Of a stretch of 64,000 bases of DNA, positions 985-3,776 are shown piece after piece. Numbering within the stretch: the stretch's first letter is position 1; every line of letters starts with the position of its first letter. This DNA comes from Escherichia coli 042. Lineage in GTDB: Bacteria; Pseudomonadota; Gammaproteobacteria; Enterobacterales; Enterobacteriaceae. The position numbers and the translations under genes were made by a program. The stretch lies in NCBI RefSeq assembly GCF_000027125.1, contig NC_017627.1; one strand, given 5' to 3'. The notes below the pieces were generated by a model, which saw only the letters and a list, made by a program, of their open reading frames with translations, was not told the DNA's origin and did no database searches.

Positions 985-1237
985 AAAAGGTGGGCACCTA
1001 CGTTACCAATACTGGCTTAATGGCTACATACGGCGGTCAGTTTACGCTTACCATCAGTGTCATGTCCAAACCAGACGGGTTAACGGCAGCAAAGAACCTT
1101 GCAGAAACGTTCGAGCATTATAACGAATGGCATCCGCATAGTGCGTTGGGTTATCGCTCGCCACGGGAATATCTACGGCAGCAGGCCAGTAATGGATTAA
1201 GTGATAACAGGTGTCTGGAAATATAGGGGCAAATCCA
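985..1237 (+). mobile_element. IS2-like (IS3 family) right-end fragment
   Basis: ORF 933..1226 ends ...[35 protein letters not shown], followed by the terminus GGGGCAAATCCA (complement TGGATTTGCCCCTATATTTCCAGACA, an IS2-type IR). The left boundary is approximate. Confidence 0.7.
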
Positions 1238-1263
1238 AAGGCCGTCTGGTGATAGCGGATCAA

Positions 1264-1305
1264 GAACAGCAATTAACTATTGCTATAATAATATCTATTA
1301 TTTTT
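1264..1305. repeat. Left arm of ~42-bp inverted repeat bracketing the ORF3-idi cassette
   Basis: GAACAGCAATTAACTATTGCTATAATAATATCTATT... recurs as a reverse complement at 3594..3635 with 1-2 mismatches. Confidence 0.8.
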
Positions 1306-1323
1306 TTTGTTTTGATTTATCAT
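1285..1323 (+). promoter_or_regulatory. Candidate AggR-dependent promoter of ORF3-idi
   Basis: ATAATAATATC (1285..1295), a 22-nt spacer, then TATCAT (1318..1323). This lies 74 nt upstream of the ORF3 ATG and fits the A/T-tract+TATC-N21/22 -10 layout I recall for AggR promoters. Confidence 0.45.
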
Positions 1324-1396
1324 TTAATTTTTTATAGATAAAATAACTTTTTGGTTTTTAATATAGTTTCATATGTAACGGAGTTCAAGGTAATAA

Positions 1397-2425
1397 ATGA
1401 AAGTAGTTTCTGATAGTTTTAATGACATGCATAAACGCCGTTATTTTAATGACACAATGGATATTATTAATTATAATCGAAAAACAATAAGATATACTGA
1501 CATAATTTTTTACTTTAGGACTCTGAAAGAAATTAGATTAAAATATCCATTCAAAGAATTAGAATCATTATTTGATCCTTTAAATATTTATCCTTTTTAC
1601 TATTTTATGCCATTTCTATTTATAAGTGATCTCCATGATAAAGGACAGTATATTGAAAGGATAAGGTACGTCGGTATTATATCAACGCTTATAGCTCGAA
1701 GAGCAATCCTCACAGACCTCTTTGTCGATGAACAGTACGAGCAACTAATTTCAAGAAACATGGGGGATTTAAAAAAAGAATATCTTGGGTATTATTTGCA
1801 AATAATAGATGTGGAAATTAATAATATTGCCTCAAAAATATTTATAGAGCCTGGTAGTTTCTATGCTTTTTATAATCGTCGTTTTAACGAGTATGTTAAC
1901 ACCATGTTAATGGAAAAGGATATTTCACCATTGATAGGCATGGATGAGAAGGCGTTTAAAAAGTACGCAGTTGGAAAATCTATACTGCATTTACTTGTTA
2001 GCGATATGGTTCTTTATATTATAAAAAAACAAGAGTTAACTCATCAGTTTGATAATATGATGAAAAGCTTTATTATGTATCTTACCCTTCAGGATGATGT
2101 TCTCGATATAATGGAAGACATACAAAAGCAGCAACCATCGCATTTCTATCCTTGGATTTCTGATGGTAAGATCATTGAAAGTTTTGATGAAAATGTTGAA
2201 AAAGCTGTGCTCCTTAAGTTTTATCTCGGTGGAGGTATTGAAAGATGCGAGGATCTTATTAATAAATATGTTGAAGATATCATTACTGCTGTAAAAAAAA
2301 CAAATCATCCTCTAAAATCATGGTTAGAAGTTATTGAAAGAATGTCATTAAAAACAAAAGACAAATTGGATTCATTTAAAGCAGTTAGAGATGAGTTACA
2401 TTTTTTTCTGTCACAACAGGGGTAA
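1397..2425 (+). CDS. Polyprenyl-diphosphate-synthase-like protein (class I isoprenoid synthase fold; EAEC cryptic ORF3)
   Basis: 342-aa ORF at ~27% GC. A second Asp-rich motif LTLQDDVLDIMED lies ~150 aa after a degenerate first motif FISDLHD. It is tightly coupled to idi (3-nt gap). Confidence 0.7.
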   Translation: MKVVSDSFNDMHKRRYFNDTMDIINYNRKTIRYTDIIFYFRTLKEIRLKYPFKELESLFDPLNIYPFYYFMPFLFISDLHDKGQYIERIRYVGIISTLIARRAILTDLFVDEQYEQLISRNMGDLKKEYLGYYLQIIDVEINNIASKIFIEPGSFYAFYNRRFNEYVNTMLMEKDISPLIGMDEKAFKKYAVGKSILHLLVSDMVLYIIKKQELTHQFDNMMKSFIMYLTLQDDVLDIMEDIQKQQPSHFYPWISDGKIIESFDENVEKAVLLKFYLGGGIERCEDLINKYVEDIITAVKKTNHPLKSWLEVIERMSLKTKDKLDSFKAVRDELHFFLSQQG

Positions 2426-2428
2426 TTT

Positions 2429-2968
2429 ATGGAGAATGTTATTTTAATTGACCATAATGATTGTGAAACGGGGATTGCCGAAAAATTATACACCCACAAA
2501 AAAGGTATTTTACATCGGGCTGTTTCTGTTTATATATGTAATAGCGATGGAAAATTATTGTTACAGCAAAGAGCACTTGGAAAATATCATTCTCCCGGCC
2601 TTTGGAGCAATACCTCTTGTACACATCCCTTCCCGGGAGAATCGAATTTATCTGCAGCTAACAGAAGATTAAGGGAGGAAATGGGGATAGAATGCCCCTT
2701 ATCTAAACTATTAAAGATCTACTATAATGTTTATGTCGGCGGTGATTTAACAGAACATGAGATTGCACATATTTTCTACGGTATTAGTGATGATGAACCA
2801 GTTTTAAATAGTTTGGAAGCTATGAGTTATAAATATGTTTCCTTGACAGAGTTAAGTTCTGAAATAAAATTCAATAACGATGCTTTTTCTCGTTGGTTCG
2901 TCTATTGTTTCCCATATATTAAAAATGCTTTCCTAAATGAGAGTAATTATACCAATTTATTGATTTAG
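2429..2968 (+). CDS. idi: Type 1 isopentenyl-diphosphate delta-isomerase (Nudix family; EAEC ORF4)
   Basis: 179 aa. Motifs match E. coli Idi: GILHRAVSVYI, WSNTSCTHPFPGES (catalytic Cys) and TEHEIAHIF (catalytic Glu region). Confidence 0.9.
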   Translation: MENVILIDHNDCETGIAEKLYTHKKGILHRAVSVYICNSDGKLLLQQRALGKYHSPGLWSNTSCTHPFPGESNLSAANRRLREEMGIECPLSKLLKIYYNVYVGGDLTEHEIAHIFYGISDDEPVLNSLEAMSYKYVSLTELSSEIKFNNDAFSRWFVYCFPYIKNAFLNESNYTNLLI

Positions 2969-3035
2969 TATATGATGGTGCATTTGAGGGTTATGTATTC
3001 AATTAGTTGAATTCTATATTCTGCCCGTGACGGTA

Positions 3036-3345
3036 ACACGGGGTCTTAAAGCTGTTTACTTGGCTCCAACCGAAGACGCTGTCCCTCAGGCACCGGAGAC
3101 GTTTGGAGGTGTATGGGAGCCGCGTTATCCGCAGGAGCTTCATAAGGTGATTCATACGACCATACCATTGAATCGCTGAACAGTGTGATCCGTCACTCAA
3201 TCAAGAAACACAGGGTGTTACCGATAGATGAGTTAGTAAAAAGCGGTGTCATCCAGGTAGCGTTACAGAAATGGGCCATACCCCTGAAGGGATGTCATCA
3301 TGGCGATGAGTCGCTTTCTTATCAATGACATCCATAGTGTCATTA
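3036..3345 (+). pseudogene. IS256-family (IS1414-like) transposase C-terminal fragment
   Basis: Translation TRGLKAVYLAPTEDAVPQAPETF...KVIHTTIPLNR*..MAMSRFLIN aligns with the C-terminus of the 32251..32862 transposase but has stops and deletions. Boundaries are approximate. Confidence 0.65.
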
Positions 3346-3391
3346 TAATAACGACATTTATGCATGCCATTGACATTGTCAGATACTATAT

Positions 3392-3544
3392 TTATGACCA
3401 AGAACTCCATGCAGGTCCATTGCTATTGATATCCTCCTGAGCCTCCCGTACAATATCTTTTATTAGGCTTAAATCCATATTTGAGGCTATTTTGATTATA
3501 TTATCAAAATCAGCATCTATTACACATGTAACTATATCAATCAT
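3392..3544 (-). CDS. Small acidic peptide, 50 aa (MIDIVTCVIDADFDNIIKIASNMDLSLIKDIVREAQEDINSNGPAWSSWS), unknown function
   Basis: Hand-translated; it falls below the 60-aa cut-off of the ORF track. ATG at 3544 is preceded by AAGGAGGTG with 7-nt spacing, and TAA is at 3392..3394. GC is ~31%, like ORF3/idi, and a candidate promoter lies at 3573..3611. Confidence 0.5.
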   Translation of the reverse strand: MIDIVTCVIDADFDNIIKIASNMDLSLIKDIVREAQEDINSNGPAWSSWS

Positions 3545-3572
3545 TATACACCTCCTTTTTCTAAACTTTTAC

Positions 3573-3611
3573 ATGCTAAAACAAAATAAATCAAAAAATA
3601 GATATTATTAT
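3573..3611 (-). promoter_or_regulatory. Candidate AggR-dependent promoter driving the 50-aa ORF
   Basis: On the minus strand: ATAATAATATC (3611..3601), a 22-nt spacer, then TAGCAT (3578..3573). This is the same -10 hexamer as upstream of aafD, about 28 nt before the ATG. Confidence 0.45.
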
Positions 3612-3635
3612 AGCAATAGTTGATTGCTGTTCTAA
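3594..3635. repeat. Right arm of ~42-bp inverted repeat bracketing the ORF3-idi cassette
   Basis: The reverse complement reads GAACAGCAATCAACTATTGCTATAATAATATCTATT..., matching 1264..1305. Confidence 0.8.
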
Positions 3636-3703
3636 CTGAACGCCACGTTCAACAACCTGTTTGACAGCTTCAACTTTAAACTCCTCAGGATAAAGCTTAC
3701 CAT
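3636..3703 (-). pseudogene. IS3-family orfA N-terminal fragment
   Basis: The minus-strand translation HGKLYPEEFKVEAVKQVVERGVQL resembles the HTH start of IS3-family OrfA proteins. It is short, with no start or stop. Confidence 0.35.
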
Positions 3704-3776
3704 GGGAATATCTACGGCAGCAGGCCAGTAATGGATTAAGTGATAACAGGTGTCTGGAAATATAGGGGCAAATCCA
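3704..3776 (+). mobile_element. IS2-like terminal 73 bp (direct repeat of 1165..1237)
   Basis: GGGAATATCTACGGCAGCAGGCCAGTAATGGATTAAGTGATAACAGGTGTCTGGAAATATAGGGGCAAATCCA is identical to 1165..1237. Confidence 0.8.

Follow-up and report, generated by a model that had tools for sequence, protein, structure and literature searches.

The repeats described here lie at positions 1165–3776 of a 64,000-nucleotide stretch (the window) that belongs to plasmid pAA2 of enteroaggregative Escherichia coli (EAEC) 042, where they surround a cassette of two genes, ORF3 and idi. The closest database record, CP091411.1, is 99.9% identical except for an IS1 insertion. The repeat architecture is ordinary: it is made of insertion sequence (IS) debris and a relic copy of a gene. 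In our judgement the region is probably a junction, scrambled by ISs, at which two diverged copies of a single three-gene operon driven by the regulator AggR have met, and a stump of the second copy would supply a small open reading frame (small ORF) in trans.

The ancestral operon would have had an AggR-type promoter, a 50-aa small ORF, ORF3 (with a predicted isoprenyl-diphosphate-synthase fold) and idi, in that order. The left copy (1264–2968) is complete except for a 110-nt deletion in the small ORF. The right copy (3326–3635, on the opposite strand) is a stump in which the promoter, an undamaged small ORF and some 28 ORF3 codons remain, cut on its inside by an IS256-family element and on its outside by an IS3-family fragment. 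IS activity has set the two paralogous copies head-to-head, with the two units transcribed toward each other, and the inverted promoter repeat is their shared 5' end. We infer that the stump was kept for supplying the small ORF in trans to ORF3-idi, which would make this a split operon. The anatomy, homology, IS identities and comparative distribution on which this is built are observed, and published RNA-seq shows that the transcripts depend on AggR. The features of the junction are as follows.

933–1237, plus strand: left IS2 remnant, the 3' end of the transposase gene with the right terminal inverted repeat (homology to IS2 begins near 1057)
1238–1263, plus strand: 26-nt spacer AAGGCCGTCTGGTGATAGCGGATCAA from the IS2 end to the start of the arm homology, part of the old cassette leader
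1264–1396, plus strand: left arm, AggR-type promoter and ORF3 leader, with the exact promoter sequence that PMC6392122 lists for EC042_pAA003 in its Table 1
1397–2425, plus strand: ORF3 (EC042_pAA003), 342 aa, the first ~28 codons (1397–1476) belonging to the left arm
2429–2968, plus strand: idi (EC042_pAA004), type 1 isopentenyl-diphosphate isomerase (NCBIfam, Pfam NUDIX)
3027–3325, plus strand: what is left of the 3' part of a transposase gene of the IS256 family (IS1414-like), with a frameshift, assigned by DNA identity
3326–3391, minus strand: inner part of the right arm, an ORF3 stump of ~22–28 codons without its own start codon, 80% identical to the 5' end of ORF3
3392–3544, minus strand: small ORF EC042_pAA005A, 50 aa, MIDIVTCVIDADFDNIIKIASNMDLSLIKDIVREAQEDINSNGPAWSSWS, with homologues upstream of diverged ORF3 genes
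3545–3635, minus strand: outer part of the right arm, an AggR-type promoter that serves the small ORF, with the exact promoter sequence that PMC6392122 lists for EC042_pAA005A in its Table 1
3636–3703, minus strand: 5' fragment of an IS3-family orfA (…GKLYPEEFKVEAVKQVVERG…) that truncates the right arm, the junction 3635/3636 being placed by alignment
3704–3776, plus strand: solo IS2 right end without a transposase gene, the exact 73-nt repeat
3777–4200, minus strand: IS629/IS1203-type (IS3 family) fragment, orfA, abutting the IS2 end (NCBIfam transpos_IS3, Pfam HTH_Tnp_1)

Two copies of one operon

A first-pass annotation of the window had described a 42-bp inverted repeat at the two ends of the cassette. 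The inverted homology is real, but it is far longer than 42 bp and the right-arm coordinates had been 3 nt out of register. A repeat search returned two inverted pairs, 1263–1334 with 3562–3633 (72 nt, 85%) and 1397–1476 with 3316–3395 (80 nt, 78%). These are collinear, and a gapped alignment merges them into a single match that takes in the promoter, the 5' leader and the start of ORF3 up to codon ~28 (1263–1476 against 3326–3634). The repeat is about 310 nt long in the right arm, which holds about 110 extra nt containing the 50-aa ORF, and right-arm homology with the left arm stops at 3634. The 42-bp block is simply the best-conserved piece. In register, 1264–1305 pairs with 3591–3632, with a single mismatch over the first 36 nt and 4 over all 42 when no gap is allowed, because the length of a T-run differs between the arms. 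The cassette has a guanine-cytosine content of 24–38% against 50–60% in the flanks, as had been noted on first reading.

What remains of the small ORF in the left arm is its first ~26 nt without the start codon (~1354–1379) and its last 17 nt, GGAGTTCAAGGTAATAA (1380–1396); a clean 110-nt deletion inside the gene lies between 1379 and 1380. Because this deletion removed the interior of the small ORF, the left promoter would now drive ORF3-idi directly. The right arm has an intact small ORF, which is preceded by a strong ribosome-binding site (AGGAGG) and ends in PAWSSWS, and here it is the ORF3 stump that has lost its start codon. The stump is truncated by the IS256-family element, and together with antisense IS sequence it makes up the annotated gene EC042_pAA005 (3410–3249). 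In plasmid 55989p a complete IS256-family terminus abuts ...ATGGATGTCATTGATAAT, at codon ~30 of the right ORF3 copy. That terminus is also kept in pO86A1, and in the pAA2 lineage it was removed by a 68-bp microhomology deletion between two TTGATAA repeats (junction 3320–3329 in the window; 6061–6128 in the comparison locus L002). EC042_pAA005 exists as an ORF because this deletion fused the ORF3 stump to antisense IS sequence.

Identity between the two arms is 78–80%, as against 95–100% when the same arm is compared between pAA2 and 55989p, and we therefore take the arms to be old paralogues and not a recent copy. The cassette as a whole is 95–98% identical across plasmids, and the right arm is closer to the left arm than to other lineages. 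Searches of PLSDB with blastn and tblastn for another complete cassette to which the right arm would correspond found none, and there was no confirmed locus in the GTDB representative genomes.

Diverged relatives of the cassette help to decide what the small ORF originally was. A word-indexed search of 5.8 billion protein clusters gave only near-identical E. coli relatives of the 50-aa ORF. Diverged ORF3 homologues were found at 77% identity (a metagenomic IncFII plasmid, loci L014 and L015), 76% (an E. coli variant, L019 and L020) and 62% (Salmonella, L018), and each of these loci has a small-ORF homologue of 50–52 aa directly upstream, with 42–60% identity and an invariant PAWSSW. The gene order small ORF, ORF3, idi/NUDIX is present in three of the four diverged cassettes; the L019 and L020 contigs are too short to hold the downstream gene. 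The small ORF and ORF3 are contiguous in L014 (TAAATG) and overlap in Salmonella (TAATG). All five promoter sequences that were aligned, a set that does not include Salmonella, have the TATC unchanged.

The duplication that had been proposed is thus half right. The arms are two copies of one thing, but the suggestion that the duplication recruited the small ORF into the regulon has it backwards. The small ORF was not recruited, because it is the ancestral first gene behind a TATC-type promoter in all four diverged relatives, and it is the left copy that lost it. EC042_pAA005A, which encodes a candidate precursor peptide, is thus the operon's conserved ancestral first gene.

The small ORF and ORF3-idi also occur together. 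ORF3-idi is carried by 56 PLSDB plasmids, and a tblastn search found one full-length small ORF in exactly those 56. Among RefSeq complete genomes, 57 have the small ORF and 57 have ORF3-idi, in one copy each and always on a plasmid. Co-occurrence extends to eight plasmids of the pO86A1 type in which the two are unlinked: here the match to ORF3-idi stops at the position corresponding to window 3325, and the small ORF is at an unrelated coordinate. In pO86A1 itself, the one of the eight that was inspected, the small-ORF arm is ~40 kb from the cassette beside aatD, with its promoter and start intact. The small ORF has come intact through at least four independent IS truncations, which halt a short way beyond its promoter on the one side or a short way into the ORF3 stump on the other.

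Some observations on the relatives and variants of the small ORF can be added. L014 (metagenome contig k141_1131, 5700–12449, with an IncFII repA nearby) has all three genes of a diverged small ORF-ORF3-NUDIX operon behind a promoter of the TATC type. The contig is plasmid-like and has two genes for AraC-family regulators, one of them 261 aa, a size like that of AggR, which suggests that the cassette travels with Rns/AggR-type regulators outside the classical pAA plasmids. There are also frameshift variants of the small ORF (P0016, P0017) on a few short metagenome contigs, for example L013; one of these, 84 aa long, reads into the frame of the ORF3 stump. They are probably assembly errors or decay. 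The relocated small-ORF arm of pO86A1 (NC_008460.1 32696–32848; 3001–3153 in L026) is ~1.5 kb from aatD, the dispersin N-acyltransferase gene, and the small-ORF arm of pAA2 is ~0.9 kb from aatP. The proximity to Aat export and acylation genes in both arrangements may be coincidence.

AggR promoters and transcription

AggR-dependent promoters have a WWWWWWWTATC site 21–23 bp upstream of the -10 element (Yasir et al., Mol Microbiol 2019, PMC6392122). Both arms have this architecture, with a predicted AggR site, ATAATAATATC, 22 bp upstream of a -10 hexamer that has A at position 2. The left promoter has the site at 1285–1295 and the -10 hexamer TATCAT at 1318–1323, and the right promoter has the site at 3611–3601 and TAGCAT at 3578–3573. 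The 75-nt promoter sequences listed for EC042_pAA003 and EC042_pAA005A in Table 1 of PMC6392122 are exactly window positions 1269–1343 on the plus strand and 3629–3555 on the minus strand. In the RNA-seq of an aggR mutant, the log2 changes are -4.54 for pAA003, -4.13 for pAA004, -5.34 for pAA005 and -5.56 for pAA005A, a drop in expression of about 20- to 50-fold for both units (PMC6392122), and pAA005A is among the most strongly AggR-dependent transcripts in these published data. Expression of pAA003, pAA005 and pAA005A is raised in an aar mutant (Santiago et al., PMC5570504).

The idea that the inverted blocks act as promoters is therefore borne out: both contain an AggR-type site and a -10 element, both are listed in Table 1 of PMC6392122, and both have AggR-dependent RNA-seq signal. 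They are already known from the literature as predicted AggR-dependent promoters. PMC6392122 treats the arms as two separate promoters and dissects neither of them experimentally, and the searched part of its text has no mention of paralogous inverted copies, of pAA005A as an ancestral first gene or of pAA005 as an ORF3 stump.

The two promoters are convergent, and the right-hand transcript would run antisense into the IS256 remnant and toward the 3' end of idi. The published RNA-seq signal of pAA005 is as strong as that of pAA005A. Over the convergent region (1264–3635) we found a single weak terminator-like site, on the plus strand at 3302–3315.

Insertion sequences, variable edges and alternative explanations

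The 73-bp direct repeat had been reported as two identical IS2-type termini, which is accurate: 1165–1237 and 3704–3776 are 100% identical over 73 nt with no third copy in the window, and the repeat is the right end of IS2. The left copy runs upstream into a frame that matches the NCBIfam profile 'IS2 transposase TnpB' (positions 216–301 of 301, E 7e-34) and Pfam rve_3, and this remnant is ~95% identical to IS2 copies annotated in E. coli genomes. The right copy consists of the terminal 73–82 nt only. The IS2 left-end sequence used as query had no match in the window at up to 3 mismatches, and there is no IS2 transposase in the window beyond the 3' remnant. Since both ends are right ends in the same direct orientation, they cannot make a transposable pair and do not form an IS2 composite transposon. 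It was also argued that this arrangement should not arise by chance; both repeats are indeed homologous DNA of identifiable origin, well beyond chance.

Nor is the IS2 frame conserved wherever the cargo occurs. By their match end points, the 56 plasmids include 15 of the O104:H4 type, 3 of the 57-kb type and 8 of the pO86A1 type. The right IS2 end is missing at the O104:H4-type locus, where IS5 is found instead; both IS2 ends are missing at the 57-kb-type locus, with what we take to be IS1 on the right side; and in the three inspected loci of the pO86A1 type the cassette has no IS2 end next to it. The complete nested frame is present in at most ~30 of the 56 plasmids. We conclude that the outer 73-bp repeats are insertion debris, two solo IS2 right ends, and no working transposon frame.

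The other IS fragments were identified in a similar manner. The IS256-family remnant has 72–77% DNA identity to annotated IS256/IS1414 transposase genes, with the match ending at the IS terminus. The IS3-family fragment is 82–90% identical to the starts of annotated IS3-family transposase genes in ~1,500 plasmids. The IS629/IS1203-type fragment is annotated in matching genomes as 'IS3-like element IS1203 family transposase' together with an AL1L pseudoknot. The 26-nt spacer is not part of the IS3-family fragment, a possibility that alignment ruled out. It is present in pAA2-type and pO86A1-type left copies and in the small-ORF arm of pO86A1, and the pAA2 right arm has lost it. In 55989-type plasmids it is deleted, and in 55989p the IS2 end abuts AACAGCAAT.

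To compare the edges of the arms we mapped 12 representative loci and tabulated 25 arm copies. On the left, the pAA2 type has an IS2 right end at 1237|1238, and the 55989 and O104:H4 types have the same IS2 end 27 nt further in; the 57-kb plasmids have what looks like an IS66-type end (an assignment that we assume) 7 nt in, and the pO86A1 types have an IS2-like left end. On the right, the pAA2 and 55989 types have the IS3-family fragment, the O104:H4 pAA has IS5/ISKpn26 inserted at CTAA 3632–3635, and the 57-kb plasmids have an end that is presumably IS1, 8 nt inside the block. Six kinds of IS sequence thus determine where the arms end on the outside, and these edges differ by up to ~35 nt between plasmids. 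From AACTATTGCTATAATAATATC inward, by comparison, the sequence is invariant in all 25 arm copies, as is the architecture of the AggR site and -10 element.

The palindrome GCAAT-N5-ATTGC that had been noticed in the block is present in both window arms (1269–1283 and 3613–3627) and is broken in other plasmids, being mutated or truncated in several of the 25 copies. As a candidate for a conserved operator we rejected it: both arms of pO86A1 and one metagenome copy have mutations in it, and IS1 has removed half of it in the 57-kb plasmids, while the promoter core is invariant.

The first-pass annotation had further viewed the inverted blocks as transposon-like termini that should always mark the ends of the cassette. 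The alignment it called for puts the block at an unrelated position in 8 of the 56 plasmids. A transposon with precise terminal inverted repeats is not what we found: on its outer side each arm stops at a different IS junction in different plasmids, and the right arm runs inward into coding sequence. The notion of a mobile unit with its own ends fails for want of a fixed outer edge and by the second arm lying off the cassette in those 8 plasmids. The inverted blocks are promoters under constraint and not termini, because their edges vary while the sequence from AACTATTGCTATAATAATATC inward is invariant and the second arm is elsewhere in 8 of 56.

One junction deserves separate mention. The sequence AAGGCCGTCTGG... 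(window 1238–1250; ~9040 in L001; ~2880 in L026) is abutted at the same nucleotide by three neighbours: in the pAA2 type by the IS2 right end, in the pO86A1 copy of the cassette by an IS2-like left end lying on the opposite strand, and in the small-ORF arm of pO86A1 by an IS3-family fragment plus ATAC. Of 25 positions compared, GTCTGGTGATAGCGGATCAAGAACA agrees with the right end of IS2 at 16, and the junction may be either a hot spot for insertion or a degenerate end of IS2-like type.

These results bear on two explanations in which the repeats themselves are functional. According to one, the cassette is a mobile unit, either a composite framed by the IS2 ends or a transposon with the 42-bp blocks as both termini and promoters. 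The exact 73-bp IS2 ends do flank a low-GC cassette of foreign base composition, its neighbourhood varies (beside repA and aat in pAA2, whereas in 55989p agg3 and aggR lie on either side) and its left boundary at AAGGCCGTCTGG recurs beside different neighbours. We nevertheless regard this as extremely unlikely, given the orientation of the two IS2 ends and their absence from other plasmid types, arm edges and a palindrome that are not kept, and a right arm that is a truncated gene copy. The other explanation is that the 73-bp repeats form a recombination frame, with RecA-dependent loss of the cassette and phase-like on/off variation. Seventy-three identical directly repeated bases 2.5 kb apart suffice for low-frequency homologous deletion in E. 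coli, and the window has just this arrangement. No deletion state was seen, however: ORF3-idi and the small ORF are kept in all 51 aggR-positive PLSDB plasmids, and a synthetic deletion junction used as a query gave two-piece matches only (the best 25 of 33 candidate records, 5,426 genomes), which is a weak negative. The frame is also missing in almost half of the plasmids that bear the cassette, and we think such switching very improbable.

An explanation that has to be taken more seriously, although we still consider it unlikely, is that the right arm is neutral debris and that the small ORF persists through recent pAA kinship with no function connected to ORF3-idi. The region is an IS graveyard in which the ORF3 stump is clearly decaying, and the small ORFs of pAA2 and 55989 have 5 residue differences for 8 nucleotide changes, which is no strong purifying signal. 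Set against this are a length of 50–52 aa, a PAWSSW tail and a ribosome-binding site that are kept across relatives whose peptides are just 42–60% identical, the survival of the small ORF through the IS truncations, and its place among the most strongly AggR-dependent transcripts. We therefore prefer the split operon with the small ORF supplied in trans, and several points weigh against that preference. Both AggR promoters are bioinformatic predictions with support from RNA-seq alone. As all 51 aggR-positive plasmids carry both the small ORF and ORF3-idi, their co-occurrence could come from shared descent of the pAA plasmids and not from selection. In CP061266.1 (L009, a sheep STEC1024 plasmid) the ORF3 and idi frames are interrupted, with longest open stretches of aa 210–342 and 19–179, and the small ORF is intact; this case, which the neutral explanation would also accommodate, may be real decay and a poor fit with strict coupling, or it may be sequencing error. 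The two copies could come either from an ancient duplication or from two separate acquisitions.

Possible function and known systems

ORF3 has a predicted trans-isoprenyl diphosphate synthase (trans-IPPS) fold with the Asp-rich motifs DLFVDE (107–112) and QDDVLD (232–237). The product of idi matches NCBIfam NF002995 at 137.8 bits (cut-off 127) and TIGR02150 at 109.5 bits (cut-off 105.8), as well as Pfam NUDIX. Neither ORF3 nor the small peptide has a Pfam or NCBIfam match at E up to 10 or a sequence-profile match in PDB, and by sequence neither is a detectable member of the polyprenyl_synt or ComX family; remote relatives of ORF3 alone touch PF00348, below its cut-off. The ORF3 family is tiny, with 13 proteins in the word-indexed search and 12 in a full HMMER search of 1.84 billion representatives.

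A small peptide gene with a conserved Trp in its C-terminal region adjoins the enzyme gene in the four diverged cassettes, where PAWSSW[S/A] is invariant; within the window, the peptide gene is separated from the enzyme gene and inverted. In Bacillus ComQ/ComX and in Paenibacillus PalQ/PalX (PMC10853753), an enzyme of the isoprenyl-diphosphate-synthase fold prenylates a Trp at or near the C-terminus of a small peptide encoded beside it, and in Sphaerobacter StheQ/StheX the prenylated Trp is second from the C-terminus (bioRxiv 10.64898/2026.08.29.745113). By analogy, a plausible reading is an AggR-controlled ComX/ComQ-like system, a split operon with convergent promoters in which ORF3 would prenylate the Trp or Trps in PAWSSWS of pAA005A, with IDI supplying the dimethylallyl diphosphate. 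A search of the literature found no paper linking these EAEC genes to peptide prenylation.

More remote relatives of ORF3 (L023–L025, L029–L032) lie in neighbourhoods like those of RiPPs (peptides made by ribosomes and modified after translation). They too are immediately preceded by small ORFs, and two of four lineages have an upstream peptide with a Trp near the C-terminus. In an Acidobacteria-like cluster the upstream peptide is 64 aa long (…EEVSWANHNP), and the cluster also has a second ORF3-like gene in tandem and divergent YcaO and B12-radical-SAM genes. A Flavobacterium metagenome-assembled genome has a 64-aa peptide ending …CRYSIWC, and a sibling contig has an M50-protease-like gene after the enzyme gene; another remote relative likewise has an M50-like protease gene downstream. 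hhalign supports homology of the enzymes (94.5%) and detects no homology between the enterobacterial peptides and the Acidobacteria-like or Flavobacterium ones, so the resemblance of the peptides is one of layout only.

Two AggR-activated genes annotated as hypothetical are accounted for by this analysis, pAA005 as an ORF3 stump and pAA005A as the first gene of the ancestral operon. It is also new that the small gene and ORF3-idi are never apart in ~56 sequenced plasmids, even when rearrangement has unlinked them, and that a Trp-tailed small peptide, an isoprenyl-synthase-fold enzyme and IDI together give a specific and testable biochemical hypothesis. The ORF3 and ORF4 genes are reported to be required for EAEC biofilm formation (PMC6392122). 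If the hypothesis is true, it would give these long-unexplained genes, which the literature links to biofilm, a concrete biochemical role; it would mean that a Gram-negative pathogen has a lipidated peptide acting as signal or effector and would extend ComQ-type peptide prenylation to enterobacterial virulence plasmids. The split system of small ORF, ORF3 and idi is the lead that we would pursue.

Compared with ComQ/ComX of Bacillus, PalQ/PalX and StheQ/StheX, the shared layout is a small peptide gene directly upstream of a gene for an all-helical enzyme of the trans-IPPS fold, and the 50-aa peptide of the window has an invariant Trp at the second-last position, as StheX does. Unlike ComQ/ComX, neither ORF3 nor the peptide is a detectable member of the corresponding sequence families, the operon has a dedicated idi and is controlled by an AraC-family virulence regulator, and in pAA plasmids the genes for peptide and enzyme are physically apart. 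In the loci inspected (the window, L014 and L016–L018; no genome-wide search was made) there is no ComP/ComA-type receptor beside the genes, the neighbours being IS debris, AraC-family regulators, replication genes or colicin genes. As for the junction itself, the IS-bounded virulence-gene mosaics of IncF virulence plasmids likewise have solo IS ends and IS-adjacent deletions, and here too solo IS2 ends, nested IS fragments and microhomology deletions account for every repeat boundary, the fragments involved being IS2 in IS629, IS256-family, IS3-family and IS5 sequences and others that are presumably IS1 and IS66. What sets this region apart from those mosaics is that the erosion always halts short of the two promoters and the small ORF.

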